DNA of 64,000 nucleotides, taken from positions 33,078-97,077 of the forward strand of contig JACOXG010000010.1 in assembly GCA_016176405.1 (NCBI GenBank). Reading direction: 5' to 3'. Shown in pieces: positions 2,681 to 61,083 of this stretch; within the stretch, counting starts at the first letter, position 1, and each line of letters starts with the position of its first letter. The notes beneath the pieces were generated by a model. It made no database searches. It was not told the DNA's origin and saw nothing but the letters and a program-made list of their open reading frames with translations. This DNA comes from Candidatus Daviesbacteria bacterium. Lineage in GTDB: Bacteria; Patescibacteriota; Microgenomatia; Daviesbacterales; UBA10151. The position numbers were made by a program, and so were the translations under genes.

Positions 2681-2692
2681 GGAGATCTAGAA

Positions 2693-2923
2693 TTGCAAGA
2701 GCCATTAAGTTTTGAAAAAATAATTACTGACTGTAGAGAGAAGCTGACTAAACTTCAAGCCACACTCGAGAGTGTACATCAAATAATATTGACCATATCT
2801 CAGTCTTATTACTGGACTCCTGAATGGCAAGCCAAAGAGAAACGAGCAGACGAGGATGCTCGGGCTGGAAGGTCAAAACAGTTCAAATCTGCCGAAGAAT
2901 TGATCAGGGAGTTGAAGTCATAG
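2693..2923 (+). CDS. hypothetical protein
   Basis: ORF in the co-directional gene array. Confidence 0.3.
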   Translation: MQEPLSFEKIITDCREKLTKLQATLESVHQIILTISQSYYWTPEWQAKEKRADEDARAGRSKQFKSAEELIRELKS

Positions 2924-3083
2924 TCTATGCCCGAGTGGACATTGGGGAGCTCAGATGGCTTCAAGGCTGATTATAAGGCAAAGCCACCGATGTTCAGCCG
3001 AGGAAATATGAATAAGGCTCAAATGATTGATGATGTAGAAGATGCTATAAGCATTCTTATATGTGCTTTATTGAGGAATAACC

Positions 3084-14637: not shown

Positions 14638-14853
14638 GTGAGAGTCACTGATTTGGATTTAGAACAATTTATTGCACAGTGCAAGTCTTGTAAGGATACT
14701 TTTGTAATTGATTATGTTAAGAGATATAAATATTTTGAAAGTCAATTAGCTTTTACAGTAAGAGATGGTCAATTTAGACATAGATGTGGTGGATTGATTA
14801 GGATTTTTACAAGTGTCCCAATCTCTTTTGACATACAAACAAGCACTAACTAA
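14638..14853 (+). CDS. hypothetical protein
   Basis: ORF only. Confidence 0.25.
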   Translation: MRVTDLDLEQFIAQCKSCKDTFVIDYVKRYKYFESQLAFTVRDGQFRHRCGGLIRIFTSVPISFDIQTSTN

Positions 14854-37762: not shown

Positions 37763-38386
37763 ATGATGAACAATAATTTTATGGGCGGAGAATTGCTACT
37801 CCCAAAACCATTTGAATTAAGACACTCTCAGTCTATACATGCATATTTAGCTAGGGAGCGAATAGTATTTATGTACGGAGCTATTGTAGGCTATCCCCAA
37901 AGAATGGATATATTCAATGCCTCCCAAATTGCTGATACTCTTTTGGTGTTGAATAGAATGGATAAGACCAAACCTATTTGGCTAGTTATTGATAGTGAAG
38001 GAGGCTTTGTAAATGATGGTTTAGGTATATATGATGTTATTAAAACTATAGAAGCTCCTGTATATACAGTAGGAAGATCTTGTTTTAGTATGGCAGCTGT
38101 GCTATTGACTGTTGGAGAAAAAGGGCACAGGTATTTGTACCCTCATTCTAAGGTGATGCTTCATCTTCCACAAGGAAGTTCATCAGGAGATTCTGAGGAA
38201 GTAAAGATTCAAGCAAAGGAGCTAGATAAAGTTAAGGATGTCTTAGTTGACATATTAATAGAAAATGGAGTAACAAAACCACGAGCTAGGATACTGAAAG
38301 ATATAAACAGAGAGCACTGGATGGATACACAAGAAGCAATTGCTTATGGCTTGGCAGACAAAGTTTTGATTAAGGGGCTGCTGTAA
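37763..38386 (+). CDS. ClpP-like serine protease (S14 family)
   Basis: Aligns to ClpP: 'IDSEGGFV' (~ SPGG), catalytic Ser 'GRSCFSMAAV', His 'MLHLPQG', and a C-terminal Asp. Confidence 0.75.
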   Translation: MMNNNFMGGELLLPKPFELRHSQSIHAYLARERIVFMYGAIVGYPQRMDIFNASQIADTLLVLNRMDKTKPIWLVIDSEGGFVNDGLGIYDVIKTIEAPVYTVGRSCFSMAAVLLTVGEKGHRYLYPHSKVMLHLPQGSSSGDSEEVKIQAKELDKVKDVLVDILIENGVTKPRARILKDINREHWMDTQEAIAYGLADKVLIKGLL

Positions 38387-41662: not shown

Positions 41663-42604
41663 ATGATTCATGTAAGATATGCCCCAAGCCCTACGGGAGA
41701 TCCTCATGTAGGAAATTTGCACACAGCTCTATTTAATTGGTTGTTTGTAAAACATTTTGGGGGGAAATTTACATTAAGGATTGATGATACAGACACTAAT
41801 CGAAATGTGCCAGATGGATTAGATAAAATTTTAGATAGTTTGGCGTATCTGGGGATGGATTTTAATGATGGCCCATTTTTTGCTTCTGATAGTTTAGACA
41901 GTCATAGATATGCCGCTGATAAGCTTGTTAATTCAGATAATGCATATTACTGTAATTGTACCAATGATGCTTTAAGGATTGCTAGAGAGTTCGCTGTCAG
42001 TAACAGAAAGGCATATAAATATAATAACCATTGTCGTGACTTAGGGCTTCGTAAAACAACGGATTCAGTTATCCGTTTTAAAATGCCATTGGATGGTGTC
42101 ACAAAATTTCATGATATGATTTATGGGGATATATGTTTTGATAATAGTCTGTTAGAGGATTTTGTAATTATGAAGTCTAATGGTTATCCTACATATCATT
42201 TAGCTACCGTTATTGATGATAATAGAATGAATATTACTCATGTTATGAGAGCCAATGATTGGATTTCAAGCACTCCAAAACATATCTGTATTTATAATGC
42301 ATTGGATTATGTATTACCTAATTTTGTTCATTTGCCATTAATTTTAGACAAGGATAGAAAAAAATTGAGTAAACGTTCTGGAGATGCTACATCAATTCTT
42401 TGGTATAGGGATAATGGTTATTATCCTGATGCCATGATTAATTTCTTGGCTTTACTTGGTTGGTCATTGGACGATAAAACAACAATTATTTCTAGAGCAG
42501 ATTTGATTAAATACTTTAGTCTAGACCGAGTTAGAAAATCGAGTTCCATATTTGATACTAACAAATTAGATTGGATTAACAAAAAGTATTCAAACATGCG
42601 ATAA
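41663..42604 (+). CDS. truncated class I glutamyl-tRNA synthetase paralog (GluQRS/YadB-like catalytic domain)
   Basis: 'RYAPSPTGDPHVGNLHTALFNWLF..FTLRIDDTDTNR' (HIGH region, ~ GluRS '[31 protein letters not shown]'). KMSKS is 'KLSKRSG'. At 313 aa it lacks the anticodon-binding domain. Confidence 0.65.
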   Translation: MIHVRYAPSPTGDPHVGNLHTALFNWLFVKHFGGKFTLRIDDTDTNRNVPDGLDKILDSLAYLGMDFNDGPFFASDSLDSHRYAADKLVNSDNAYYCNCTNDALRIAREFAVSNRKAYKYNNHCRDLGLRKTTDSVIRFKMPLDGVTKFHDMIYGDICFDNSLLEDFVIMKSNGYPTYHLATVIDDNRMNITHVMRANDWISSTPKHICIYNALDYVLPNFVHLPLILDKDRKKLSKRSGDATSILWYRDNGYYPDAMINFLALLGWSLDDKTTIISRADLIKYFSLDRVRKSSSIFDTNKLDWINKKYSNMR

Positions 42605-48154: not shown

Positions 48155-49726
48155 ATGAAAACAATATTATTTAAAGACAAAGCAAGAAAAGAACTTTTTG
48201 AAGGCATTAAAGTTCTATATGATGCTGTAAAATTCACTTTAGGCCCAAAAGGTAGAAATGCTGTTTTGCAAATGAGAACTGGCTATCCAAATATTTGTAG
48301 TGATGGGGCGACAATACTAAAGGACTTGTCATTACCAGACAGAGCACAAAATGCGGGGATGCAAATAGTAAAAGAAGCATCACAAAAGACCAATGATGCT
48401 GTAGGAGATGGGACTACTACATCAACAGTTTTAGCCTATTGGCTAGTATATGAGGCTTTCAAAGCCTTAGAGGCAGGACATTCTCCGTTAGACATTAGAA
48501 ATGGAATTGAACACGCATTAAAGCTAGTGAAATATGACTTATCTAAAATGTCTGTTCCAGTTAATAGTACACTACAAATCCAGCAAATTGCAGCCTTGGC
48601 TTCTCATGATGAAGAAATGGGGCAAATGGTAGCTGATGTATTAGCGAGAGTTGGATTAAAGGGGACTGTAGTTGTAGAGGAAGCCAAAGTTTTAAAAGAT
48701 ATAGTTGAATATGTAGATGGTATGCAGATTGATAGGGGATATTTAACGGAAAACTTTGCTGCTTTATATAATCAGAATGAAGTAACATTAGACAATCCAT
48801 ATATTTTAATTACAGAGCAGCCTATTTCAAATCCAAATGATATGGCAGCAGTTCTAGATAAAGTAGTGCAGAGTGGGAAACAGAACTTATTAGTAATAGC
48901 CGAAGATGTTATTGGCCATGCTTTGTCAACGCTGTTAGTTAATGTGCAGAAGAGGACAGTAAATAGTCTAGCAATTAGAGCGCCAGCAATTGAATTTCGT
49001 AGGACTGATATGCTAGAAGATATTGCAGTATTTACTGGTGGGGTAATGATTTCTAAGGCTTCTGGTAGAAGTATTAAGAATATTGAATTGTCAGATTTAG
49101 GCAGAGCAGGCAGAGTAATATCAACTAGAGATATAACAACTATAATTGGGGGCAAGGGAGAAAAGCAGAAAATACAAAATAGAATTAGTCAAATAAGGGA
49201 TGCGGACAGTAGAGAGAAGTCGCAATTCGACAAGGATTTGTATAAGGATCGTATTGCACACTTGTCTAGTGGTATAGCAGTAATCAAAGTGGGTGGAATA
49301 TCTGATGTAGATGTCCGAGAACGAAAAAGTAGAGTAGATGATGCTCTTGGCGCAACAAAGGCTGCAATGGAAGAAGGCATAGTTCCTGGCGGTGGAGTAG
49401 CATTGATACAAGCTTGTTCTCTATTAGATAATTTAAGACTAACAAATACACAGGATAGCCTTGGAGTTAAAGTATTCTACAATGCATTACAGCATCCATT
49501 ATGGTTAATTGCAGATAATTCAGGATATAATAACGGGGAATATGTTATAGAAGTAGTAAAGAAAAAGCAGACTGGTTATGATGCTTTTACAGGAGAATTT
49601 TGTGATGCAATAGAGAGAGGGATAGTAGACCCTACAAAGGTTGTTCGAGTAGCATTGGAAAACGCAGTTAGTGTTGCTTTTATATTGTTGACTACAGAAG
49701 CAGTTGTAGCAATCAAGGAGGAATAA
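48155..49726 (+). CDS. GroEL-like chaperonin (Cpn60 family)
   Basis: 'AVKFTLGPKGRNAVL', 'DAVGDGTTTSTVLA' and 'VPGGGVALIQA' match GroEL signature blocks. Confidence 0.8.
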   Translation: MKTILFKDKARKELFEGIKVLYDAVKFTLGPKGRNAVLQMRTGYPNICSDGATILKDLSLPDRAQNAGMQIVKEASQKTNDAVGDGTTTSTVLAYWLVYEAFKALEAGHSPLDIRNGIEHALKLVKYDLSKMSVPVNSTLQIQQIAALASHDEEMGQMVADVLARVGLKGTVVVEEAKVLKDIVEYVDGMQIDRGYLTENFAALYNQNEVTLDNPYILITEQPISNPNDMAAVLDKVVQSGKQNLLVIAEDVIGHALSTLLVNVQKRTVNSLAIRAPAIEFRRTDMLEDIAVFTGGVMISKASGRSIKNIELSDLGRAGRVISTRDITTIIGGKGEKQKIQNRISQIRDADSREKSQFDKDLYKDRIAHLSSGIAVIKVGGISDVDVRERKSRVDDALGATKAAMEEGIVPGGGVALIQACSLLDNLRLTNTQDSLGVKVFYNALQHPLWLIADNSGYNNGEYVIEVVKKKQTGYDAFTGEFCDAIERGIVDPTKVVRVALENAVSVAFILLTTEAVVAIKEE

Positions 49727-49728
49727 CA

Positions 49729-50343
49729 ATGGAATATCCAAAAATAGAAACATTATTTGATAGGGATAAAGACACATTTAAGGTTGATACAAGTAAATGG
49801 AGACTCCCAGAATTTGAGTATCTTCAAAATAATGAATGGCTTGTAACAGAAAAAATAGATGGGACAAATATACGAGTTATGTGGGATGGACAAAAAGTAG
49901 TGTTTGGTGGTAGAACTGACAATGCCAATCTATCAGCTTCTTTGGTAACTAGACTCCAAGAATTGTTCCCAGTAGAAAAATTCCAACTAAATTATCCTAA
50001 TGTATCCATGACTTTATATGGAGAGGGATACGGGGCAGGAATTCAAAAGGGTGGTGGAAATTATCTTCCAGATGGGAAGGATTTTATTTTGTTTGATGTG
50101 CTAATAAAGGACTATTGGCTATTGCAAGATGATATGAATGGCATAGCATCTAAACTGCAAATTAAGACTGTGCCATTTTTAGGGAAATATAATTTGAATG
50201 TTGTTACAAATATGGTGAAGTTAGGATTAGTTTCTACTTTTGGGTCATTTAAAGCTGAAGGTGTGGTAGTGAAGACTCCAGTTGGTCTATATTCTAGGTA
50301 CAATCAAAGACTTGTCGGGAAGTTAAAAGCGACAGATTTATAA
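49729..50343 (+). CDS. ATP-dependent RNA/DNA ligase-family nucleotidyltransferase (minimal Rnl-like)
   Basis: Motif I 'KIDGTN', motif III 'TLYGEGYG', motif IV 'FILFDV', motif V 'EGVVVK'. Confidence 0.55.
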   Translation: MEYPKIETLFDRDKDTFKVDTSKWRLPEFEYLQNNEWLVTEKIDGTNIRVMWDGQKVVFGGRTDNANLSASLVTRLQELFPVEKFQLNYPNVSMTLYGEGYGAGIQKGGGNYLPDGKDFILFDVLIKDYWLLQDDMNGIASKLQIKTVPFLGKYNLNVVTNMVKLGLVSTFGSFKAEGVVVKTPVGLYSRYNQRLVGKLKATDL

Positions 50344-50409: not shown

Positions 50410-51066
50410 ATGGTTACTGCTTTGGATTCCTATCTGGTTATTATGTATTGGGATTGGTTTATCAATAGCATCAGTTTTGAGACATTTGCTATGACAATTG
50501 AACAAACAGTGTCTGAAATGTGGGGCAAGGATTATCAATTATTTGGATTAAATGACCCGTTCAATCCGAATAATTTTGTAGAAGGATTTCTTTGTACAAG
50601 AGCAGCTAATGATTATGGTTCGTTGATGATTTCAAAGGTCAATGGAACCAAATGCCCCCAACTAATTCAAGGGACTCCAAAACTACATTATCCATTTGAT
50701 AAAAATGGTAATTGGAATTTTCCGTCTGCTAGAAAAATTCTAGTCTATGAAAAGCTTGATGGAACAAATGTTGTTCAGTATGTCTATGGAGATAAAAAAC
50801 AGACATATACTTCGTATAAGACAAGACTAAGGCCGTTTCTTTCTGATGGTCGTTTTGGAGATTTCTTTGGTATGTGGCAAGATATGTTGAAGAAATATCC
50901 AAATATCAATAAGATCGCAGAGACAGGAGTAGCATATAGTTTTGAGCTGTATGGATATTTGAATCGTCATTTGATTGAATATTCTGTAGGTTTGGATTGC
51001 GCTTTATTGTTCATTAGATACCATTCAATATATCCACCAACTAAATTTGACATTTTTTCGCAGTAA
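50410..51066 (+). CDS. second ligase-like nucleotidyltransferase (motif I 'KLDGTN'), possibly truncated or frameshifted at its 3' end
   Basis: 'YEKLDGTNVVQY' and 'SFELYG'. A 35-codon continuation lies in another frame at 51069-51176. Confidence 0.4.
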   Translation: MVTALDSYLVIMYWDWFINSISFETFAMTIEQTVSEMWGKDYQLFGLNDPFNPNNFVEGFLCTRAANDYGSLMISKVNGTKCPQLIQGTPKLHYPFDKNGNWNFPSARKILVYEKLDGTNVVQYVYGDKKQTYTSYKTRLRPFLSDGRFGDFFGMWQDMLKKYPNINKIAETGVAYSFELYGYLNRHLIEYSVGLDCALLFIRYHSIYPPTKFDIFSQ

Positions 51067-51194
51067 AGATTTTCCTGTCCCAGTCTGCAAATTATTAACT
51101 AAGATAGACAAAGACTATGTTTGGAATTATGGTGAACAAAAGAAAGTGATGTCTTCTAAGCTAAAAGAGTAATGGATTTAAGCTAAGGTTAGAG

Positions 51195-51803
51195 ATGATG
51201 GACGAGAAGAATAGACAAGCAATAATAGATTATTTTAGACAAATTCGTCCTAGAAGAACTATAGCTAGAATTCAAGTTCAGGGGACATTTATTGCGTGTG
51301 AATTTGACAATGGAACTCGTTGGGAAGTTCGATCAGCTGATATTCCAATAGATTATTCTAGCAGGGACTTAGAAGTAATTGATTTAGCATATTCAGAAAA
51401 AATTTCTCCTGGTGATTTTGCTGATGCTATGGAGAATCTATCTTGGAAGCAATTAAATGAATTTAAGAGATATTGGGAGAATCAATATCCAACTTTAAAA
51501 ATTGACATTAATTCCAAAATTACAAATGAGACAGAATTGTTTCAGTCTACAGTATGTAAATTTTTAAATATTTCATTAGAAGAATTTATGGCTCAGTATG
51601 GAAAAAAGAAGACCGAAGCTATGATCGAAGGGGTCGGAGCCTGGAAACCACTAAAAAATGATGAAGCATTTGAATCAATGTATACAATGGAGCCTAAGTG
51701 GGAGAAACCTATAGGTTGGACACAAAGGGCTAAGAAAGAGATGACAGAGGAAGAGAATATTGAAATTGTAGATAACCAGAAGCGTAAAATCATTCTAGAT
51801 TAG
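51195..51803 (+). CDS. hypothetical protein with shared C-terminal tag (..VDNQKRKIILD)
   Basis: C-terminal peptide shared with 60227..60781 and four others. Confidence 0.4.
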   Translation: MMDEKNRQAIIDYFRQIRPRRTIARIQVQGTFIACEFDNGTRWEVRSADIPIDYSSRDLEVIDLAYSEKISPGDFADAMENLSWKQLNEFKRYWENQYPTLKIDINSKITNETELFQSTVCKFLNISLEEFMAQYGKKKTEAMIEGVGAWKPLKNDEAFESMYTMEPKWEKPIGWTQRAKKEMTEEENIEIVDNQKRKIILD

Positions 51804-51836
51804 AGCGCTCTCAAAAAAGAATATAATATATGTAGA

Positions 51837-52355
51837 ATGGCAATTCTCAAAATAGTAATTCTCTCGGCAACACTGGCATTCTTAGCCCAGTTTGTAGCTG
51901 TAGGGTCTCCTAATTTTGTAGAAGTGAATGAGTCGGCATTGGTTTTACTACGAGATCGCTATCCAACTATGTTTGAACTAGTTATGTATAATGTTATAGA
52001 GAACATAGAATGGACATCCGATGCTGACCAGATACCAGGCTGGAAAGTCGGTGCAGATTATATCATGTTGCCAGATGATGGCAATGCAGATATTGTTATG
52101 GCAGGAAGGTTGGCACATGAAGCTATGCATATCTTGCTCTGGAAAAACTGTATTCAGCCTGGTGGTGCATGGGGCGAGGAGTTTGCCATTTATCAGGAGA
52201 CAGTCACGCTAAGAAAATTAAATCGTTTTGGTGAATATAATGGAGTTGAAGATTATATTCAGTCACTACAGAAAGCCATTGGCACACACGGTAAAGGGAC
52301 AGAGATAGTATCTCTACCCGCATATTGTGAAGGTGGAATTGCATTAGTTAAATAA
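51837..52355 (+). CDS. secreted HExxH zinc metallopeptidase-like protein
   Basis: N-terminal signal peptide 'MAILKIVILSATLAFLAQFVAVG' and 'LAHEAMHILLW' (HExxH). Confidence 0.45.
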   Translation: MAILKIVILSATLAFLAQFVAVGSPNFVEVNESALVLLRDRYPTMFELVMYNVIENIEWTSDADQIPGWKVGADYIMLPDDGNADIVMAGRLAHEAMHILLWKNCIQPGGAWGEEFAIYQETVTLRKLNRFGEYNGVEDYIQSLQKAIGTHGKGTEIVSLPAYCEGGIALVK

Positions 52356-52393
52356 GTTTTAAGGAAGATGCTATTAGAACTATCTAATTGTTT

Positions 52394-52424
52394 GCCTCTA
52401 GTAAAAATTTAAAATACTGGAGGC
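52394..52424 (+). terminator. hairpin (candidate terminator) immediately upstream of the promoter cassette
   Basis: GCCTCTAGTA / TACTGGAGGC is a 10-bp stem with one G-U, extendable by TTT/AAA. T-rich sequence follows after the cassette begins. Confidence 0.4.
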
Positions 52425-52454
52425 AAAAACATTTTCTTTCAATATAATATAATT
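52425..52454 (+). promoter_or_regulatory. conserved phage promoter cassette
   Basis: AAAAACATTTTCTTTCAATATAATATAATT. Confidence 0.55.
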
Positions 52455-52462
52455 AATCTATC

Positions 52463-52648
52463 TTGAAAGGGGAGAAAAGAAAAGTGCAGTTAACTAAAGT
52501 AGTGTATCCATACAACCCATATCAGTATGAATGTCAGTATTGCTCCCGAAGATTAGGTCATTCTCAGAAAGTTCATGACACAGTAGTATCAAAGAACAAC
52601 TATTATTCTCTTGTAATTGATAGGGTAATGAGAAGGAAGTGGGCATAA
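52463..52648 (+). CDS. small hypothetical protein (start more likely the GTG at 52484)
   Basis: Downstream of the promoter cassette. 'CQYCSRRLGH'. Confidence 0.35.
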   Translation: MKGEKRKVQLTKVVYPYNPYQYECQYCSRRLGHSQKVHDTVVSKNNYYSLVIDRVMRRKWA

Positions 52649-52926
52649 TAAGGAGAATGTATCCGATGCTTCAGTATGAGGTAATAGCAGAGTTTAGGTC
52701 AAAGACTAAGCCTGGGAAATGTTACATAGTTAAGAAAAGATTAGACACCGGAATGCTAACTTGCAATTGCCCAGCTTGGATTTTCAATAAATATGAGGAT
52801 AGAACTTGCTATCATACATTAAAGTTAATGGCAAGTGGGGCATTGCAGTCACAGCAGCAAAATCAAGTTATTGATAGAATTGAGGCTGTCAATTCAGGAA
52901 GGAGAGTATTGATACTAGATGAGTAA
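52639..52926 (+). CDS. SWIM-type zinc-finger protein
   Basis: 'CNCPAWIFNKYEDRTCYH' fits CxCx(n)CxH. Confidence 0.35.
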   Translation: MGIIRRMYPMLQYEVIAEFRSKTKPGKCYIVKKRLDTGMLTCNCPAWIFNKYEDRTCYHTLKLMASGALQSQQQNQVIDRIEAVNSGRRVLILDE

Positions 52927-53119
52927 AAAGACGAGTTTTGAGGTTATAATGAAACGAAGCCATTACACAAGTTATTTTATTGAGGTCGAAACAGAAGAGG
53001 ATGCTGAAGTCTTAGTAAAAGATGGTAACGGGACGTTTGGGGCTGATTGGGAAAGCCTGGAGGAAGAAGTGTATGCGGTGCTCTGTCCCCCAAAATCTTT
53101 TTCTTCAAATAAATTATAA
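52919..53119 (+). CDS. hypothetical protein
   Basis: ORF only. Confidence 0.3.
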   Translation: MSKKTSFEVIMKRSHYTSYFIEVETEEDAEVLVKDGNGTFGADWESLEEEVYAVLCPPKSFSSNKL

Positions 53120-53289
53120 TTATATTATCTTAAATAGGGGGGTTTTATGAGAAAAGGCAAATGTTATATTTGTGGAAAAATATCTAAGTTATATCTTGAT
53201 TATGGCGGACCAGGAAAAGTAAAAGGCTATTGTCTAAAATGCTCAAATAAAAATAGAAATCTAGCCTAAAATTAGCTTTAAAAATAATA

Positions 53290-54849
53290 GTGGAGAATAG
53301 AAAAGTGACAAATAAGTTCCAGTCTACTTTAGCCGCATATAATAAGGCGTCATATGCCTTGATATATTGCAAGACACCAGAAGAGCTAAGGGCAACACAA
53401 TCAATTCAAAAACTTTCTTTTGAGCTTGGCAGAACATTTGGTTTATGGTCTGTGACTAAGGGATGGAGACTTTTCGGTAATAAGACTAAATTTGGGCAGG
53501 TTACTGAAGTTTTTGATATTACTGACCCAGTCGAGGCTATGAAGAAAGTATCCACTTTTCCAAAAGGGGCTGGTATCTATGTGCTAATCAATTTCCACCC
53601 ATTCATGAAAAGCCCAGAGGCAATTCAGCTATTGAAAGATACAGCCGAAACTTGTCGAGAGGATAATGTCACTCTTGTATTTGTGTCCAATGTAATGGAA
53701 ATTCCAACAGAGCTCTCTAGGGATTTCACTCAGCTAGATTTTTCATTGCCAGATGAAGAGGAGCTTGAGAGCAGACTAAATGAGATAGCCAAAAATGCCC
53801 CTACTGTGAAATTGCCTGCTGACGTCTCTCCGTTAATAGACGCGGGCAAAGGGATGACAGGATCAGAATATTCTGATGCCCTTGCAAGTATGTTGGTAAA
53901 GGAGAAGAAATATAATCCTTCAAGTGTTCTATTGGAAAAAGTGAAAATCCTTGAGAAGGCATCTATTAGATACTACAATTCAAGTCTGAATCTAAATGAT
54001 GTTGGTGGACTTGAGAACTTGAAGAAGTGGGCAGTATCCGTTAAGCCAACATTTGGAACAAAGGCAAAGACTGCTGGAGTAAAGCCGCCAAAGGGAGTAT
54101 TGTTAGTTGGAGTTCCTGGCTGCGGAAAGAGCTATGTTATGAAGGCTATGTCTTCGGCTTGGGGAATTCCATTGCTATGGGGAGATATATCAGCAGCATA
54201 TTCTAAGTTTCTTGGGGAGACAGAGGAGCGAATGAAATATATGTTTGAGGTGTCCAGAATAATGTCTCCTTGTATATTGGGAATTGATGAATTGGAAAAG
54301 AGCATTGCTGGATATGAAGGTGGGGGGCAAACAAGTGGGGGTGTCCCAAATAGAGTGCTAGGAATTATGTTGACAGAGATGCAAGAGTCTGACTCATCAG
54401 TAGTAATAGTAGCCACAGCAAATGAAGCATGGAAGCTGCCTGCCCCGCTTGTCAGAAGGTTCGATGAAGTATTCTTTGTAGACCTCCCTAGTGACCCAGA
54501 GAGGAAGGACATATTTAAGATTCATTTGGCAAAGGTAAAAGCCAGCAATGATATGGATATAGAGCATCTATCAAAAATAACAGAAGGATTCTCTGGGGCT
54601 GAAATAGAGAAGGTATGTCGAAAGGCTCAAATTGCAGCCTTCGGAATGAACCAGAAGATTAGCCAGAACTATGTTGTTACAGCAGTGAATGGGATAGTCC
54701 CAGTCAGTACGTCAATGGCTGAAGAAGTAACAGCTATTAGAAAGTGGGCAGAGGCAAGAGCGGTGCCAGCATCAAAGATTCAGGCATATGATATTACTAA
54801 GGGTAGACGGGCACTTGATCTTAGCGATGGCCCAACAATTATGGCATAG
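53290..54849 (+). CDS. AAA+ ATPase (classic AAA clade) with the C-terminal tag ..RRALDLS 8 aa before its end
   Basis: Walker A 'GVPGCGKSY', Walker B 'ILGIDELEKS', SRH 'LPAPLVRRFDEVFFVDLP'. Confidence 0.75.
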   Translation: MENRKVTNKFQSTLAAYNKASYALIYCKTPEELRATQSIQKLSFELGRTFGLWSVTKGWRLFGNKTKFGQVTEVFDITDPVEAMKKVSTFPKGAGIYVLINFHPFMKSPEAIQLLKDTAETCREDNVTLVFVSNVMEIPTELSRDFTQLDFSLPDEEELESRLNEIAKNAPTVKLPADVSPLIDAGKGMTGSEYSDALASMLVKEKKYNPSSVLLEKVKILEKASIRYYNSSLNLNDVGGLENLKKWAVSVKPTFGTKAKTAGVKPPKGVLLVGVPGCGKSYVMKAMSSAWGIPLLWGDISAAYSKFLGETEERMKYMFEVSRIMSPCILGIDELEKSIAGYEGGGQTSGGVPNRVLGIMLTEMQESDSSVVIVATANEAWKLPAPLVRRFDEVFFVDLPSDPERKDIFKIHLAKVKASNDMDIEHLSKITEGFSGAEIEKVCRKAQIAAFGMNQKISQNYVVTAVNGIVPVSTSMAEEVTAIRKWAEARAVPASKIQAYDITKGRRALDLSDGPTIMA

Positions 54850-54879
54850 AAAAACATTTTCTTTCAATATAATATAATT
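54850..54879 (+). promoter_or_regulatory. conserved phage promoter cassette
   Basis: AAAAACATTTTCTTTCAATATAATATAATT. Confidence 0.55.
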
Positions 54880-54908
54880 TAAATGTCAAGGGAGCGAAGG
54901 AGAGACAA

Positions 54909-55088
54909 ATGGTAAATAGAGACGAGAAATTAGCCCATATTTTTAGCCAGCTTTTGAAATTAGGGGATAGTAATCTGGATTGGGCATTGTCAGAAGTTCA
55001 AAAAATTATTGACAAGCAAAGTATGGATGCTTGGGATGCTGAAACAGATGAAGGATTTAAGCCACCTCTGAGTTTAACAAATTAGAAA
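54909..55088 (+). CDS. small hypothetical protein (59 aa, below the ORF-track cutoff)
   Basis: ATG 31 nt downstream of the promoter cassette, preceded by AAGGAG. Hand-translated as MVNRDEKLAHIFSQ...SLTN. Confidence 0.4.
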
Positions 55089-55119
55089 GCCTAAGAAAAG
55101 CATAATAGGAGAATAGAAA

Positions 55120-55974
55120 ATGTTAGAAAAGATTTGGAAAGATGGTGTTGCACTATCAGTAGATGTTCGGCTTTGGGGAGGGGATGCAGCGCTTGACCCA
55201 GAAGATGTAGGTTTGAGTAGTGTTGATGTACCTCAGGATTTATTCCAAATGGGCAGAAAGAGACTAGTCCCAAAGCTAAGCATGTCTAATCTCGTGGCAT
55301 ATAGGATGAAGACCAGGAATGTATTATTCAGGTACAGTTTTCCAATGCCATTTGGGGATACGTGGTTTGTCCCTTGGACGAATGTGAAGGAAGTAGTAGA
55401 TTGGTTAAAGGAGACACAATCACAGTTCTATAAGGATACAGATAAATTTTTATCTGAGTATGATACTCTGAGAGAGTCCTTTTTGGCAGAGCATGAACAA
55501 TACAGGAAAGTGTTAGAGCCTTTCTATCCATCACAGAAAAGACTTTCAAATAAGTTTTATTTCAAATACAGTCTTTTTGAACTGTCTGTTCCTCGGACTG
55601 GGGTGCTATCAGCAGAAGATGCACAGAGAGTAGACCAGGAGACAGATAATTTTTTGAAGCAAGTTACTACTCAATTGAGACAACAAGCAGGAGATGCAGC
55701 TTCAAAGTTAGCTGCTACTCTTGAAAAGGATTCAGCCACAAAGGCCAGCTTAAAGTCTGCTCAAAACATGGTGGAAAGATTTAAGAGCTTGAACTTTGTC
55801 AAAGACACAAAGATGGAGAATGCTTTGAATCTTTTGAATGCTGCTCTTTCAGTTGGCCTTGATAATCCAGAGCTAGTGGAAGCAGCAAAAGGAGTTGTGG
55901 TAGAGGCAAGAGTTAATGGTAACACAGTCAATGAGATTGTAGGAAGTTATAAGAGAGCGTTAGATTTAAGTTAA
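55120..55974 (+). CDS. hypothetical protein with C-terminal tag (..SYKRALDLS)
   Basis: Shared C-terminal peptide. Confidence 0.4.
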   Translation: MLEKIWKDGVALSVDVRLWGGDAALDPEDVGLSSVDVPQDLFQMGRKRLVPKLSMSNLVAYRMKTRNVLFRYSFPMPFGDTWFVPWTNVKEVVDWLKETQSQFYKDTDKFLSEYDTLRESFLAEHEQYRKVLEPFYPSQKRLSNKFYFKYSLFELSVPRTGVLSAEDAQRVDQETDNFLKQVTTQLRQQAGDAASKLAATLEKDSATKASLKSAQNMVERFKSLNFVKDTKMENALNLLNAALSVGLDNPELVEAAKGVVVEARVNGNTVNEIVGSYKRALDLS

Positions 55975-55986
55975 GGAAGGCATGAG

Positions 55987-56244
55987 ATGGCAAAGTATGA
56001 ATTATATGACCCAGAGAATAATAAAGAAGAAGAAATGCTTTTTGATGCAGAAGAAGAAATGGACTCATGTTTAGAGGAGTTAAAGGATGACTTGAGGGAA
56101 ATAGTAGATGCTTTTAACTTTAAGTTTAATGATTGGAAGGAAAAGCATAGAAAGTTGGGGGCTAGTGATACAGCAGTAAAAGAGAGCGTTCATATAAAAG
56201 TTAAGAGTATTTTTAGCAATAATCTGGGAAGGATTGACATCTAG
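55987..56244 (+). CDS. hypothetical acidic protein
   Basis: ORF only. Confidence 0.3.
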   Translation: MAKYELYDPENNKEEEMLFDAEEEMDSCLEELKDDLREIVDAFNFKFNDWKEKHRKLGASDTAVKESVHIKVKSIFSNNLGRIDI

Positions 56245-56260
56245 AAAGGAGTATAAATAA

Positions 56261-56566
56261 GTGCCTTGTGATTTGAGGATAAGAGTTAGAGCCTATGATA
56301 TGAACAGACTATATGACATCTGTTCAAGGATGGGACTACAGGTAACAAAGACATCTGGATACGTTCACATAAATGGTAGAGGGATAAATAAGGTCTATAA
56401 GGAGAATGACCTTCTTAATATGACTGATGCTGAGTTACAGTCAGGGCTTGGAAAAGCTATCCAAGAGTATTCCAAGCAGAAAACTTTAGAGGCTCTTAGG
56501 AAACAAGGACTAAAATTTCAGCAGAAGCAAGTAGAAGGGCGCATAGAGATAGTGGTGGAGAATTAA
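56261..56566 (+). CDS. hypothetical protein
   Basis: ORF only. Confidence 0.3.
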   Translation: MPCDLRIRVRAYDMNRLYDICSRMGLQVTKTSGYVHINGRGINKVYKENDLLNMTDAELQSGLGKAIQEYSKQKTLEALRKQGLKFQQKQVEGRIEIVVEN

Positions 56567-56713
56567 ACATGAAGTATGAAGTTATTGGAACTGTTTATGA
56601 GACTTGGGAAGAAGCTATTGAAGCAGAGTCCGCAGAAGAGGCTGAAAATCTAGCAGTTAGAAAAATTCAGCATGAATATACAATGTTTCATGTGAAGTAG
56701 TGAGGAAAGTTGA

Positions 56714-56896
56714 ATGAAATACAAAATTATTATCTATCCTGATGGGGGAGTAGAAGCTCAAGATCCTTCTGGCAGAGCAGTGTCTAAGAGTATGCCATGG
56801 CTAATAAAAGCTCTAGGAGAAATAGGAGAAGAGAAGCATCTATCAGGAAGTCATACTCATACAGAGAAGGAATCAATAGAAATTCAGAATGGCTAA
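56714..56896 (+). CDS. hypothetical protein
   Basis: ORF only. Confidence 0.25.
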   Translation: MKYKIIIYPDGGVEAQDPSGRAVSKSMPWLIKALGEIGEEKHLSGSHTHTEKESIEIQNG

Positions 56897-56919
56897 ATAT
56901 AGTCTAAAATAGATTTGTC

Positions 56920-57243
56920 ATGAGAAAAGGAATTCAAATGAAAGAAGTCGTGGAGGATGAGACCATGGAAGAGGTTGGGCTGCTTGTAACAACAGCATAC
57001 AAAGGGGTATTTTTTGGGTATGGCATCTTTTCGGATGCTGCCCAGATTACATTGAAGCGTGCCAGAATGTGTATCTATTGGCCAACAGGAGAAAAGGGAG
57101 TAATGGGATTAGCACTCGTAGGGCCGCTCCCAGGGGCTAAAATTGGGCCTGCTGTGCCATCCTTGATTTTGCGGGATGTAACTGCTGTCGTTATATGTAC
57201 GTCTAGTGCTATTGAGAAGTGGGAGAAGCCACCGTTATGGTAA
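56920..57243 (+). CDS. hypothetical protein
   Basis: ORF only. Confidence 0.3.
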   Translation: MRKGIQMKEVVEDETMEEVGLLVTTAYKGVFFGYGIFSDAAQITLKRARMCIYWPTGEKGVMGLALVGPLPGAKIGPAVPSLILRDVTAVVICTSSAIEKWEKPPLW

Positions 57244-57914
57244 CATTAGCTAATGTTATTAATGGCCCTAGCTATGGCTATGGCTATGGCTATGGCGATG
57301 GCTCTGGCTATGGCTATGGCTATGGCGATGGTTCTGGTTATGGCTCTGGCTATGGCTCTGGCTATGGCTATGGCTATGGCTCTGGTTATGGCTATGGCTA
57401 TGGCGATGGCTCTGGCTATGGCTATGGCTATGGCGATGGTTCTGGCTATGGCTCTGGCTCTGGCTCTGGCGATGGCTATGGCTCTGGCTCTAGCTATGGC
57501 TATGGCTATGGCTATGGCTATGGCTCTAGCTATGGCTCTGGCTCTGGCTCTGGCGATGGCTATGGCTCTGGCTCTGGCTATGGCTCTGGCTATGGCTCTG
57601 GCTCTGGCTATGGCTATGGCTCTGGCTATGGCTATGGCTATGGCTATGGCTATGGCGATGGTTGCTTTGATTACATTCGGACACTGCAGGAGACAGGACT
57701 GCTTACAACTAATTTCATTTTTGCCTTGCCAACAGAGATGCAGAAAAAGTTGAAGCTATTAAAATTAGTTACCCCAAATTCATTGCAAGAAAAAAAGAGA
57801 TCAGTTAAAACTGAATTAGATAAGTATAATTTGAATATTTCTACATCTTTAAAAGAAGACTATTCAACCAATATAATATTCAATAGCGGGAAAAGAAAGA
57901 TAGACTTATCTTAG
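57219..57914 (+). CDS. Gly/Tyr-rich tandem-repeat protein (GYGYGYGDGS)n with a globular C-terminal region and C-terminal tag (..NIIFNSGKRKIDLS)
   Basis: About 130 aa made of G-Y-G/S-D repeats. The last 18 aa are nearly identical to the end of 57936..58718. Confidence 0.5.
   Translation: MGEATVMVTLANVINGPSYGYGYGYGDGSGYGYGYGDGSGYGSGYGSGYGYGYGSGYGYGYGDGSGYGYGYGDGSGYGSGSGSGDGYGSGSSYGYGYGYGYGSSYGSGSGSGDGYGSGSGYGSGYGSGSGYGYGSGYGYGYGYGYGDGCFDYIRTLQETGLLTTNFIFALPTEMQKKLKLLKLVTPNSLQEKKRSVKTELDKYNLNISTSLKEDYSTNIIFNSGKRKIDLS
57268..57662 (+). repeat. imperfect hexanucleotide tandem repeat (GGCTATGGCTATGGCGATGGCTCTGGC units)
   Basis: Repeated GGCTMT/GGCGAT units. This is the coding repeat inside the Gly/Tyr-rich protein gene. 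Confidence 0.8.
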
Positions 57915-57935
57915 AATATCTATCAGGAGAGGGCA

Positions 57936-58718
57936 ATGAGATCTATTTGGGACAAAACAGTTTGTATCGGTTCTGGCACTACTCCAGCTAAGATCTATAA
58001 TTTTTTTGACTATGGGGGAGATTTTAAAGAAGGAAAGTGTTTTGACTGTGGAAAAATTTTTAGACTAAATTATATCAGTGGCTTAGTGAGACAGCATTTT
58101 ATAAATACGGGGCCAATTGAATATCGCGATAATTGGGGGCCAGAATTTGCAAAAGAATACTTGAAGAGCATTCGTTTCAAAAAAGAAAGACAAGTGATAA
58201 AAAGTGCAGTTAAAGCACAGAGAGCTGCTGAAGAGAGGGGAAGAAAGCAAAAACAAGAAAATGATAATATTGTAGATAATATTAAATCTCAGATGTCATT
58301 AAAAGAATTTATAGTTCAATATGGCAATAAGCCTGTTCCTAGTTTATTTATAGACAAATGGGTCCCCAAGATTGGAGACAGAGTAAAAGTAATTGGGTCA
58401 TTTAAGGATTGCGGGGGGAGGGTGGCTAGTCATGATTGCCATTTACGTAAAATGATAGGTAGAGTAGGAGAAATAACTTCTCTAAACTTAATATACGAAA
58501 ATCATAATATTGGTGTTAAATTTGGTTATGGAGATGACATATCTGTCGGACATTATTCTGGCTTAGAGATAAAGCCAATTTTTAGCTCATCCCAAAAAGA
58601 AAAGGGGTCTATTGCATCAAGGCTGAAGAATTTTGATTTGAATGTATTTTTAAAAGAAGAAGATTATTCAGGCAATATAATATTTAACAGCGGCAAGAGA
58701 AAAATAGATCTGTCTTAA
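57936..58718 (+). CDS. hypothetical protein with C-terminal tag (..NIIFNSGKRKIDLS)
   Basis: Shared C-terminal peptide. Confidence 0.4.
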   Translation: MRSIWDKTVCIGSGTTPAKIYNFFDYGGDFKEGKCFDCGKIFRLNYISGLVRQHFINTGPIEYRDNWGPEFAKEYLKSIRFKKERQVIKSAVKAQRAAEERGRKQKQENDNIVDNIKSQMSLKEFIVQYGNKPVPSLFIDKWVPKIGDRVKVIGSFKDCGGRVASHDCHLRKMIGRVGEITSLNLIYENHNIGVKFGYGDDISVGHYSGLEIKPIFSSSQKEKGSIASRLKNFDLNVFLKEEDYSGNIIFNSGKRKIDLS

Positions 58719-58732
58719 AAAAAGGAAAAGTT

Positions 58733-59194
58733 ATGCATTATTATACTGTTAGTCTAGTTGGAGGGGAAGAGTATAGTCCAGTAATCATAGCAATTCTGAA
58801 TAAGATCCCTTATTTTGATAGTGTGGTAGAGGCAATGGCACGAGGACTCTTTGCAAAATGGTTAAGCAATCCTAATAGAACTATACAAGGTTTTCCTGGT
58901 CATGATCATGACATAAATATTAAAATAGCAGAACAACTTGCTAAAGAATATGGTGGGGATGTCATTGAATTTGAAGAAGAATATGAATGGGAGTATTTCA
59001 CGGCACATAGTTTTAAATATCCAGCATTAGCAAAAGCTCAAGATGAACCATTTAAAGAAAACTTGAAGCCAGTCTTTCCTCATTACTTTGGAAAAGATTT
59101 AGAGACTAAATTATTCAATGCATTAGTAGAAGCATACAAAGTAGAATTAGAAAAGGAGAAAGAAAAGAAGACACATGAGAAAACAGGTTTATAG
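58733..59194 (+). CDS. hypothetical protein
   Basis: ORF only. Confidence 0.3.
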   Translation: MHYYTVSLVGGEEYSPVIIAILNKIPYFDSVVEAMARGLFAKWLSNPNRTIQGFPGHDHDINIKIAEQLAKEYGGDVIEFEEEYEWEYFTAHSFKYPALAKAQDEPFKENLKPVFPHYFGKDLETKLFNALVEAYKVELEKEKEKKTHEKTGL

Positions 59195-59492
59195 TTGGCA
59201 TGATGTGTCAGATGAAGAGATAGAAAAAATTTATGGTTCCTTATATACTTTATTTGAAGAAATAGTCCCAGTTGACTGTGATTATGATAATGTCATAGAT
59301 ATGAAATTGATAGATAGACGTAAATTTGAACCGATGCATTTTTTCAAGCAGCCACATTTAGCCAAAGATTATTCTAATATGGAGGACTGTCTGAACATTG
59401 CTAATATAAATATTCATCAAGCAGTAGAAAAATGGCAGACATTGTATAGAATTAAGAAAGATTTAGAAAAGGAGAAAAGTGAATCTAGATAG
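59175..59492 (+). CDS. hypothetical protein
   Basis: ORF only. Confidence 0.3.
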   Translation: MRKQVYSWHDVSDEEIEKIYGSLYTLFEEIVPVDCDYDNVIDMKLIDRRKFEPMHFFKQPHLAKDYSNMEDCLNIANINIHQAVEKWQTLYRIKKDLEKEKSESR

Positions 59493-59841
59493 ACGAGAGA
59501 AGCATGTTCTAAATGAGCTAAGGGAGACATATAATATTCCAGTTGCTCAGTTGCTAGGAAAACTAAACTCAAAAGAAGCCTCAGTAATTTATGCAGAGCT
59601 AAAAGGGGACGATTCAATATCCTGTCATGTGCTAAGTTTAGATGGTTTTATTTGTGGAGGAGTTTCTTCTTGTTCCCCTAATGATAAATATAGCTATGCA
59701 ATAGGAAGAATGATAGCATTTGCAGACGCTGCGGTGAATTATTCAAACAATGTAGTAGGAAGGAGTAAATATCATCTTACAAGTAAGCAATTGGAAAGCA
59801 TAGCAAGAGGAAATACTTTATCTAGCAATATAATAGAATAA
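59479..59841 (+). CDS. hypothetical protein
   Basis: ORF only. Confidence 0.3.
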   Translation: MNLDRREKHVLNELRETYNIPVAQLLGKLNSKEASVIYAELKGDDSISCHVLSLDGFICGGVSSCSPNDKYSYAIGRMIAFADAAVNYSNNVVGRSKYHLTSKQLESIARGNTLSSNIIE

Positions 59842-59849
59842 GAGTACAT

Positions 59850-60070
59850 GCTTGGTGGCAGAAAGAACCGATTGCGTCAATCCACATCGTAGTAATGGTC
59901 TGGTAGTGTGGAAGTGTCAGACACTCCCAGGTAGGGGCGGGCAATGCAGCTTTGTAGCGGCAAGGATGTGTCTGCTGAGACCTGGGCCAAGCATTATGCT
60001 GCTTCCAAGATCTACTTCATTCTGGCTGTCAGTAGGTAAAGGATTGATAGACTTCTTCGGTGGAAAAATG
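59850..60070 (+). ncRNA. candidate structured non-coding RNA (GC-rich island)
   Basis: About 50% GC in a roughly 35% GC genome. The track ORF here (59852..60133) has an implausible, low-complexity translation. Perfect complementary 7-mers CAGACAC/GTGTCTG and CCCAGGT/ACCTGGG sit in a crossing (pseudoknot-like) order, plus a hairpin TCCACAT..GTGTGGA. Confidence 0.3.
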
Positions 60071-60226
60071 GACTATAATGATTCCGATGATATAGAGATC
60101 AATTATTCAAAGCCTATTGGAACGTGGGGATGAATTTCAAAATAATTTGTTCAGTATAAAGCTATTAACAAAAGATGATTTATTTGCAATGGAAGATTTT
60201 GCAGCTTATTTAATGAGATAACTCAA

Positions 60227-60781
60227 ATGGAACGATTTAAAATAGGGGATTTAGTTCAGGTCTATGCTTTATGCAAAATTGTAGTACATGAACCGCCTTT
60301 CTTAGGAAAAACTGGTAGAATATCCCAAATAAGCAGATTTGAGGGACACAACATTAGTGTTATATTTGATGACATTAAATATCCTTGTGTGTATGATCAA
60401 AATGAGATACAATTAGTTGATGCTAATGAATGGATACCAAAAGTTGGAAATCTTGTTAAAGTTGTAAATGTTTGTAAAGCTATATCAATTATGGCTCATC
60501 GATGCCACGACAAAGATATTTTGCAACAGGTTGGTATAATTGAAAATATAAATGATATAGAAATACTTAATCATCGTATTCTTATTAGGTTTAAGAACAA
60601 TAAACTTCTATACGGCCATTATTCTAAAGCAGAATTAGAACTTGTAAACACATGGTTAGACCAGAACAAACGAAAGCCATGGATAGAAGAAATACAGAAT
60701 ACATTGGTGGACATGAAAAAGAAACAAGAAGACCAATTCTTAATTATTGACAATCAGAAAAGACGAATAGACTTAGACTAA
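60227..60781 (+). CDS. hypothetical protein with C-terminal tag (..IIDNQKRRIDLD)
   Basis: Shared C-terminal peptide. Confidence 0.4.
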   Translation: MERFKIGDLVQVYALCKIVVHEPPFLGKTGRISQISRFEGHNISVIFDDIKYPCVYDQNEIQLVDANEWIPKVGNLVKVVNVCKAISIMAHRCHDKDILQQVGIIENINDIEILNHRILIRFKNNKLLYGHYSKAELELVNTWLDQNKRKPWIEEIQNTLVDMKKKQEDQFLIIDNQKRRIDLD

Positions 60782-60786
60782 ATAAA

Positions 60787-61083
60787 ATGCAGACATTAAT
60801 TTTAAAAGTCCTAGTTGGATCTAAAGCTCATGGTCTTGCTAACAAAGACAGTGATACAGATTATAGGGGAGTTTTTGTAGAATCAACATCTGAAATTCTG
60901 GCAATGAAGAAATTAACTATTAAAAAAGTTGAGCCAAATCTTTATGAAATATCAAATTTTGCTTCATATAAAACAGTGACTTTATTTGCCACAGCAGAAG
61001 AATTAGAAGAACTTCATCAAGCATTAGAAAATATAAGTTGTTTGGATGAGAATTGTTCTTGTTATATTAAAGCTATGTCTTGA
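60787..61083 (+). CDS. hypothetical protein
   Basis: ORF only. Confidence 0.3.
   Translation: MQTLILKVLVGSKAHGLANKDSDTDYRGVFVESTSEILAMKKLTIKKVEPNLYEISNFASYKTVTLFATAEELEELHQALENISCLDENCSCYIKAMS

Follow-up and report, generated by a model that had tools for sequence, protein, structure and literature searches.

We examined a stretch of 64,000 nucleotides (hereafter the window) of contig JACOXG010000010.1, deposited under the name Candidatus Daviesbacteria bacterium. By its gene content (terminase, portal, prohead protease and replication genes, on one strand), the contig is a large phage, either mis-binned or a phage of that host. On the + strand of the window, between 51.2 and 60.8 kb, eight neighboring genes share one C-terminal consensus, Φ-Φ-x-N/G-x-[KR]-R-x-[IL]-[DI]-L-[SD], where Φ is a hydrophobic residue (Table 1). 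Six of these tails had been listed in an earlier reading of the sequence (the original prediction), and all six were confirmed at their genes; reading the ends of all open reading frames (ORFs) added two bearers, a SWIM-type protein (52639-52926) and, with a weaker tail, the protein at 55987-56244, so that the total is eight rather than six. One of the bearers is a Ycf46-family AAA+ ATPase, and all tail genes of the window lie no more than 10 kb from its gene. No clear tails were seen outside the window in the 10 kb upstream or 8 kb downstream flanks. A weak tail-like ending, ..TQGKIADLSA, occurs on a protein of 450 amino acids (aa) about 5 kb past the window end (L009, 9530-10882), and two paralogous proteins of ~130 aa are encoded downstream of it.

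The regular expression [KR][KRAV][IL][DI]L[SDE] gave eight matches in the six frames of the window, and seven of these close long + strand ORFs, at a distance of 0-7 residues from the stop codon; all seven map to the interval from 51.7 to 60.8 kb. No match was internal to a protein among the 94 called + strand proteins of the window (19,608 residues). In composition-preserving shuffles of the protein ends (n = 20,000), at most two tail matches were obtained versus the seven observed; the strict regular expressions were formulated post hoc, with the data already seen, and the margin over the shuffles is large. Low-complexity chance matches, one of the possibilities by which the original prediction expected that it might fail, are ruled out because no shuffle reached the observed count and no internal matches exist.

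The tails are also conserved as peptides and not as DNA. Between the two NIIFNSGKRKIDLS tails, 8 of 42 nucleotides are different and seven codons show synonymous changes, and the RALDLS codons of the ATPase and the DUF3150 protein differ at five of six positions. These synonymous differences indicate selection on the peptide, as the original prediction had held, and they support the tail as a selected, functional peptide.

Table 1. Features of the window (positions counted from its first nucleotide) and the tails that they carry
Feature	Position	Strand	C-terminal tail or remark
202-aa protein	51195-51803	+	IVDNQKRKIILD, encoded at 51765-51800
SWIM-type zinc-finger protein, 95 aa, C-x-C...C-x-H	52639-52926	+	AVNSGRRVLILDE
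Ycf46-family AAA+ ATPase	53290-54849	+	ITKGRRALDLS at 54790-54822, then 8 residues
DUF3150 protein (conserved ATPase partner)	55120-55974	+	IVGSYKRALDLS at 55936-55971
85-aa protein, probable weaker tail bearer	55987-56244	+	ends IFSNNLGRIDI
DUF1257 (Ycf35)-like protein, core of module	56261-56566	+	no tail of its own
Divergent DUF2997-like small protein, core of module	56714-56896	+	
Gly/Tyr/Ser/Asp low-complexity protein	57219-57914	+	NIIFNSGKRKIDLS at 57870-57911
260-aa protein: Cys-pair region, coiled region, small beta-rich domain	57936-58718	+	NIIFNSGKRKIDLS at 58674-58715
184-aa paralog of the C-terminal half of 57936-58718	60227-60781	+	IIDNQKRRIDLD at 60743-60778
Relic or frameshift-dependent tail	51160-51186	+	AKRVMDLS, then stop; downstream of ORF 50410-51066
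Intergenic element AAAAACATTTTCTTTCAATATAATATAAT	52424, 53091, 54849, 59810		
Cpn60 chaperonin	48155-49726		
RNA ligase	49729-50343		
RlaP	60787-61083		
ClpP	37763-38386		
Prohead protease (S78)	38514-40403		interrupted by a Hint/intein domain
GluRS/GlnRS catalytic-domain protein	41663-42604		
Terminase large-subunit ORF	14813-16438		
Ribonucleotide reductase large-subunit ORF	16398-18671		

The ATPase matched PF00004 (E = 3.3e-23) and AAA_lid_3, PF17862 (E = 3.7e-9). It aligned with cyanobacterial proteins named 'stress-responsive protein Ycf46' at 36-38% identity over at least 92% of the query (E ~1e-87), the N-terminal non-catalytic domain included; other homologs are named 'SpoVK/Ycf46/Vps4 family', and the family alignment comprised 50 sequences. 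It falls in the unfoldase clade nearest Cdc48, PAN and FtsH, and among solved structures the D2 domains of Cdc48/p97 are closest to it in sequence. The ATPase works like Cdc48 but is not a Cdc48 ortholog, given its NCBIfam TIGR01243 score of 134 versus a cut-off of 803. An AlphaFold 2 (AF2) model, with a predicted local distance difference test score (pLDDT) of 89 and a predicted template modeling score of 0.82, consists of an N-terminal alpha/beta tier, a helical lid and an AAA tier, and Foldseek aligned it with p97 D1-D2 over ~550 columns (E = 2e-23, template modeling score up to 0.66). An N-terminal double-psi-barrel cofactor domain is not found in the model, which opens directly with the first alpha/beta tier, and the last 14 residues have pLDDT values below 50, so that the tail is predicted to be disordered. 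The model and the Foldseek result together indicate that the ATPase has two p97-like tiers, lacks the N-domain and ends in a flexible tail. The database entry for an identical ATPase, 'AAA family ATPase [Candidatus Daviesbacteria bacterium]', belongs to a contig of 109,932 bp with phage gene content. Ycf46 has been described only as a stress-induced, KaiC-interacting ATPase (bioRxiv 10.1101/2025.07.21.665879).

The tail extends well beyond this phage. Judging from the C-termini of homologs, the motif [KR]-x-Φ-[DE]-Φ is a C-terminal signature of the Ycf46-type AAA+ ATPases, which we propose here as a family feature and for which we are aware of no published description. Ycf46-type ATPases with the motif occur in cyanobacteria, Myxococcota, Planctomycetota, archaea and many phages; the cyanobacterial proteins end in ..EYQR[LM]EF, and other cellular homologs in KRRLEI, KRRIEI, KRKLEF, RKLEL or RKIEF. 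A scan of IMG/VR with the single ATPase sequence returned nothing, and the ATPase alignment was needed to recover loci. Among the 66 non-redundant viral ATPase loci retrieved in this way, 32 ATPases end in [KR]x[LIVM][DE][LIVMF] (e.g., RALDL, RSLDL, RTIDL and GKRALDLA), and some viral ATPases have basic variant endings such as KRKLRM and KRRIQR. The motif is absent from an ATPase subfamily of ~499 aa. In cultured phages, the ATPase endings are ..VRVLDL (gp97 of Mycobacterium phage Catdawg), ..GKRAGMSLDS (Rhizobium phage L338C) and ..RNRRAIRTQG (Aeromonas phage HJ05). Several ATPases continue for 8-11 residues beyond the motif (8 in the window, 11 in contig L011), and the signal therefore does not include a free carboxylate. 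Conservation of the tail reaches distant genomes that differ greatly in G+C content, and the motif varies among phages of different hosts and is uniform within one genome.

The partners of the ATPase carry matching tails. The core module of the window comprises the genes for the ATPase, the DUF3150 protein, the DUF1257-like protein and the DUF2997-like protein, and the same AAA-DUF3150-DUF1257-DUF2997 module recurs in the mobile-element contigs L011 and L012. The AAA-DUF1257-DUF2997 module is found in cells and in ~34 fetched loci; the cellular loci L003 and L004 carry the AAA gene beside DUF1257 (L004 also beside DUF2997) without a called DUF3150. The AAA-DUF3150 pair was observed in L011, L012, L013, L016, L024, L039, L079 and L080. 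The tails of the two proteins, ATPase before DUF3150, read RALDLS and RALDLS in the window, KRKLRM and RRKLRM in L011, KRRIQR and KRRIVR in L013, GRRIDA and GRVIDI in L080, and SRAATLDL and SRASVLEL in L016. Pairs from the same genome were more similar than shuffled pairs (permutation P = 0.001, 13 loci). A word-indexed homolog search with DUF3150 returned only the protein itself, and a 12-sequence profile only 15 proteins.

Tail-like endings were likewise found on other neighbors of the viral ATPases. WGR proteins end in ..GNRALEL, ..GHRKLEL or ..GSRVLDI, DUF6744 proteins in ..GRRKLEV or ..PRTIEI, and SWIM homologs in ..KKRLFRMVEVG (L040 and L059) or ..YERKMDI (L039). Across the 66 loci, 20 non-ATPase genes carried the strict motif in their last nine residues versus 8.4 expected (P = 4e-4). 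Viral loci have at most two such genes each; the six or seven of the window are the extreme. A BLOSUM scan for neighbors resembling the ATPase tail of their own genome gave 76 matches versus 40 expected; it was noisy and has been superseded by the regular-expression count and the DUF3150 pairing test. In high-G+C loci without DUF1257/DUF2997, the gene after the ATPase ends in ..ALEF, ..MELF, ..LDLI or ..ALEL, and a small HSHDGG.TWH protein follows this ATPase partner. Catdawg is an example (L175, 4875-8702): its AAA ATPase gp97 is accompanied by gp95, which ends in YALDFEEVV, and then by gp93, the HSHDGG.TWH protein. The module often lies beside ParB and orphan methyltransferase genes in mobile elements. 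In plastids, ycf35 (DUF1257) and ycf46 are among the genes missing from the same red-algal lineages (PMC5940233).

Assignments of the module genes in the window were made as follows. The DUF3150 protein matched PF11348 with 95.9 bits (gathering cut-off 24.9; E = 3.3e-27). The 85-aa protein encoded after it closes on G-R-I-D-I with a free carboxyl terminus, which fits G-R-x-[LI]-D-[LIV], the ending that viral ATPases have most often. The DUF1257-like protein was reached by jackhmmer from the Pfam-annotated DUF1257 of L012 (E = 4e-8; pairwise E = 0.001), in agreement with synteny; Pfam gave no match at E < 0.01. The C-terminal strand of DUF1257, ..EGRIEIVVEN, appears to resemble the tail. The DUF2997-like protein could be aligned to the DUF2997 members that Pfam annotates in L012 and L004 (I.I.PDG.VE...G..G.......ALG), again in agreement with synteny; Pfam itself gave no match, and with respect to the G-x-x-G-x-x-C of DUF2997 the Cys is absent and there is a 2-residue gap. 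The SWIM assignment is our reading of the Cys/His pattern, for which Pfam gave no match, and no Pfam or PHROG family matched the 202-aa protein. When the tagged proteins were scanned, only the ATPase matched PHROGs, mainly a family of unknown function; PADLOC gave only a generic AAA similarity (IetA). All NCBIfam hits stayed below threshold: those of the ATPase were to generic AAA families (CDC48, FtsH, PAN), and 57936-58718 had a single weak one at E = 0.003. Near-identical DNA had no match among 50,697 phage records.

The proteins had been described as otherwise unrelated. At least five unrelated families do carry the tail, but two pairs among the bearers are homologous: 57936-58718 and 60227-60781 are paralogous over ~134 residues (E = 2e-11), and 57219-57914 and 57936-58718 have a common C-terminal stretch of 42 residues (57% identity). 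Similarity between 51195-51803 and 60227-60781 is confined to the 18-aa tail region. Among 1.84 billion representatives, the sole distant homolog of 60227-60781 is P0137 (41% identity), which itself ends in a tail, ..LIFPSGKRKIILD. Scans of IMG/VR and the JGI metagenomes for its locus were empty, and an exact-protein look-up found it on L094, a 3.2-kb contig from a related phage; L094 is syntenic with the window and its translations include visibly close DUF1257-like and DUF2997-like counterparts. In L094, 57936-58718 is represented by two separate genes (2067-3009), which end in ..PSGKRIIILD and ..PSGKRKIILD. DNA repeat analysis places a decayed internal tail, NIVDNIKSQMSL, at the corresponding junction in the window gene (~58250-58300). 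By this comparison, 57936-58718 is a fusion of two ancestral tail-bearing genes. Since both halves are tailed in L094 and NIVDNIKSQMSL has decayed, the tail seems to be kept when terminal and lost when internal. The L094 orthologs keep their tails, so that the tag is present in homologs, where the original prediction had reckoned with its possible absence.

The low-complexity protein contains ~150 Gly/Tyr/Ser/Asp residues (GYGYGDGSGYGS...) and is encoded over a 12/18-nt tandem DNA repeat at 57185-57730. Its low-complexity run resembles FUS-type domains, an independent assembly breaks inside the repeat, and the 'MAMAMA' ORF that overlaps the gene at 57253-57753 is an artefact of the reading frame. 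A ninth tail may lie just upstream of the block. ORF 50410-51066 comes to its stop at a T6 run, beyond which the next frame stays open over ~40 codons up to CTAAAAGAG; a -1 shift there would add K-RVMDLS and a stop. Two frame changes would therefore yield a ninth tail-bearing protein. The sequence of 50410-51186 is identical in the independent assembly L093, which leaves a pseudogene or programmed shifts, so that AKRVMDLS is either a decayed ninth tail or a tail reached by programmed frameshifting.

A terminal, flexible and selected peptide that is common to the ATPase and its neighbors and that co-varies within genomes leads us to infer a docking role, and with it candidate receptors and an action of the ATPase on the tagged proteins. 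The explanation to which we give slightly better than an even chance is that the tail is a common short linear docking motif, by means of which one putative binding site would gather the ATPase together with its cofactors or clients. In form the motif is a basic pair followed by hydrophobic, acidic and hydrophobic residues, [KR]-[KR]-x-Φ-[DE]-Φ, in most cases with a Gly/Asn turn and a short run of hydrophobic residues ahead of it. The alternating Φ-x-Φ after the basic pair, together with the preceding turn (NSG, NQ, KG or GS) and hydrophobic stretch, points to a strand or hairpin by which a beta-sheet would be extended. The ATPase and all tailed proteins would then compete for, or be co-recruited to, the same site. 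One candidate is the ATPase ring, in which case the tailed proteins would act as cofactors or clients and the ATPase's own tail as an in-built competitor or regulator; another is a common partner such as DUF1257/DUF2997. In this phage, duplication and fusion have spread the tail to eight proteins, and a set of this size suggests that the ATPase system here serves an unusually large number of tagged proteins.

Several observations weigh against a shared docking motif of this kind. The strict tail patterns were drawn up only after the data had been inspected. About half of the viral loci have no detectable DUF1257/DUF2997 and yet keep the tails, which means that DUF1257/DUF2997 cannot be the universal receptor. 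Among the neighbors of cyanobacterial ATPases, none has a shared tail, and tail sharing is therefore a trait of mobile elements rather than of the whole family. The co-variation between ATPase and DUF3150 tails could partly reflect common ancestry or tail recombination instead of a co-evolving receptor. A charge-swap search looked within the ATPase for a residue that changes with the acidic or basic character of the tail. Its only leads, window residues 200 and 258, are confounded by phylogeny (residue 200 is Ser in the window ATPase itself) and were not used as evidence.

Among the rival explanations, a degron is unlikely, though it has to be taken seriously. The tail would be a C-terminal unfolding or degradation tag, read by the phage ATPase with the phage ClpP or a host peptidase, or by host ClpXP-type proteases; the tagged proteins would be short-lived, and its own tail would make the ATPase self-limiting. 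The original prediction had offered a related idea, a recognition tag for the co-encoded ClpP and AAA+ ATPase. Its link to the ATPase has gained from the family motif, the copying of the tail onto partners and the co-variation, while its link to ClpP has lost ground on co-occurrence. The ClpP of the window is genuine (PF00574, E = 1e-44), neither ClpX nor ClpA is encoded nearby, and the ATPase belongs to the unfoldase clade described above, but the ClpP gene is 15 kb away, and in the other fetched loci no ClpP homolog was found within 10 kb of the ATPase in either direction. ClpX reads basic-hydrophobic C-terminal tags such as the RRKKAI of MuA, and ClpA is autodegraded through its own C-terminus, both of which count in favor of a degron. 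The window tails are basic-hydrophobic too, but they end in Ser, Asp or Glu, unlike the non-polar ends typical of ClpX tags. It is difficult to see how the machines could be stable if, in hundreds of lineages, the unfoldase itself and DUF3150, its invariant partner, both carried a degron. The co-variation between genomes also argues for a module-specific reader over a conserved host protease, though hosts differ as well.

It is rather doubtful that the tail is a targeting signal of the PTS1 or EEVD type within a hitherto unrecognized cellular organizing system built on Ycf46-type unfoldases. The ATPase, the DUF3150, WGR and SWIM adaptors and the phage clients would then be gathered on a DUF1257/DUF2997 scaffold or in a condensate, with the FUS-like Gly/Tyr low-complexity protein as one client, and a ..RLEF code in cyanobacteria and plastids would explain how Ycf46 finds its partners. 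We regard as improbable a host hub, that is, docking of the ATPase and tagged proteins on one host protein or structure (a protease ring, a membrane site or a nucleoid protein), which would concentrate the proteins or block the site. Variation of the motif between phages of different hosts, with uniformity within a genome, would fit such a hub, as would the lack of DUF1257/DUF2997 in roughly half of the loci and the N-terminal hydrophobic segments of cellular DUF1257 proteins, which suggest a membrane anchor. Cellular Ycf46 proteins end in the same motif, however, from which one would expect a receptor that cells possess and that is tied to the ATPase itself, and the tail bearers are always encoded beside the ATPase; the hub is thus less parsimonious given the cellular spread of the motif. 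Loading into a capsid or encapsulin-type shell, which the original prediction had raised by analogy with other short C-terminal peptides on unrelated cargo, would have the tail dock cargo to the inner face of an HK97-fold shell and is very improbable. The motif is a hallmark of the ATPase family in cyanobacteria, plastids, other bacteria and archaea, and cellular Ycf46 proteins carry it without any capsid. The tagged genes cluster around the ATPase, among chaperonin and RNA-repair genes and more than 30 kb from terminase and portal, and tail sharing is also seen on L012, a mobile-element contig that does not look like a phage (ParB, methyltransferases); to our knowledge, moreover, the motif is unlike any encapsulin loading peptide. 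Chance, low complexity or a translated DNA-level signal such as a promoter or terminator has a negligible probability. Two tails do contain TATAAT-like strings within their NIIF codons, and some tail genes are followed by a promoter-like repeat, but the tails differ synonymously, the AAAAACATTTTCTTTCAATATAATATAAT repeat is intergenic and apart from them, the shuffles and the lack of internal matches speak against chance, and the tail persists in distant genomes of very different G+C.

The closest known logic, by analogy, is that of C-terminal docking tails common to AAA+ ATPases and unrelated proteasome activators. HbYX tails (PAN, Rpt, Cdc48 and Blm10) and GQYL tails (mycobacterial Mpa and Bpa/PafE) dock activators to the proteasome. 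There, as with RALDLS on the ATPase and DUF3150, an AAA+ unfoldase and unrelated non-ATPase proteins would have one flexible C-terminal docking peptide in common. The window tail differs in having no penultimate Tyr, and in several ATPases the motif is followed by 8-11 residues and is not at the extreme C-terminus. No 20S proteasome turned up, and no search was aimed at 20S subunits; ClpP and the S78 prohead protease were the only such enzymes identified. The p97/Cdc48 cofactor motifs (the C-terminal tail read by PUB/PUL, and VIM, VBM and SHP) are comparable in the p97-like two-tier fold, the disordered tail, the many unrelated proteins and an Arg-rich linear motif. In contrast to p97, the window ATPase has no N-domain, which in p97 binds VIM, VBM and SHP, its first tier looks degenerate in sequence and model, and its motif is common to the ATPase and its partners.

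Other systems resemble the tail in part. EEVD (Hsp70/Hsp90 with TPR co-chaperones) and PTS1 (SKL with Pex5) are C-terminal peptides on unrelated proteins, read by one receptor domain and defining a client set; these motifs need a free C-terminus, however, and a TPR protein was found in one cellular locus only (L004), not in the window. Encapsulin loading peptides and phage scaffold docking segments are likewise short terminal peptides on unrelated proteins of neighboring genes, here in a virus-like genome, whereas the window motif comes from an ATPase family that is also cellular, its genes are not beside shell genes and its sequence is unlike loading peptides. The MIM motifs of ESCRT-III, bound by the MIT domain of Vps4/CdvC, are C-terminal and recruit a classical-clade AAA+ protein, and the ATPase domain shows CdvC-level similarity in NCBIfam. 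Here there is no MIT domain, the motif looks like a strand or hairpin rather than a helix, and the ATPase itself bears it. As identities of the tail, HbYX and encapsulin motifs were rejected on sequence. The beta-clamp-binding motif QL[SD]LF, defined by Gln at position 1 and an aromatic residue or Leu at position 5, was also rejected, for neither Gln nor Phe occupies these positions in the tails, whose sequence is [AKRV]-[IL]-[DI]-L-[SD]. Because the penultimate Tyr, the strict terminal position and a TPR or N-domain receptor are missing and no 20S proteasome was seen, the tail would be a variant distinct from these systems. The literature that we could consult in part on Ycf46, Ycf35, DUF1257/DUF2997, DUF3150 and shared C-terminal docking peptides contains nothing on the tail or on the function of DUF3150, DUF1257 or DUF2997, and within that scope it bears out the remark of the original prediction that no equivalent has been described.

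The conservation of Ycf46 spans plastids, cyanobacteria, archaea and many phages, and the portions of the literature searched gave no mechanistic account of it. A docking code common to the ATPase and its neighbors would offer a direct handle for finding the partners and clients of the Ycf46 machine. The tail-bearing DUF3150, WGR, DUF6744 and SWIM proteins become candidate cofactors of one machine, and the position of the module beside ParB and orphan methyltransferases hints at a role in takeover or counter-defense. The window phage is the richest natural example, with eight tagged proteins including the Gly/Tyr low-complexity protein, and the same arrangement exists in culturable phages, namely Catdawg, L338C and HJ05.

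The tail block had been assigned to a late region, which does not hold, as the surroundings are not structural. The block is flanked by genes for Cpn60 chaperonin, RNA ligase, RlaP and RtcB, the last just past the window end (L009, 5249-6403), and terminase, portal and prohead protease lie at 14.8-40.4 kb. The RNA-repair genes around the block suggest a counter-defense region against tRNA- or RNA-cleaving host systems. Chaperonin did not co-occur with the ATPase in the other loci. The intergenic element AAAAACATTTTCTTTCAATATAATATAAT has an extended -10-like TATAAT, is separate from the tails and, from its sequence and position, is probably a phage promoter for the tail gene block. With ClpP, the S78 protease and its Hint/intein interruption, the GluRS/GlnRS-domain protein and Cpn60, the phage has an unusually rich set of proteostasis and translation genes.

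Further observations concern the rest of the window. The terminase large-subunit ORF overlaps the start of the ribonucleotide reductase large-subunit ORF, and the terminase matches the PHROG profile over a part of its length only, which may mean an insertion or a split gene. ThyA-type (PF00303) and ThyX-type (PF02511) thymidylate synthases are encoded side by side at 679-1566 and 1898-2680, and a protein of 682 aa (22344-24392) combines DUF192 with a C-terminal ADP-ribosyltransferase toxin domain (PF03496).

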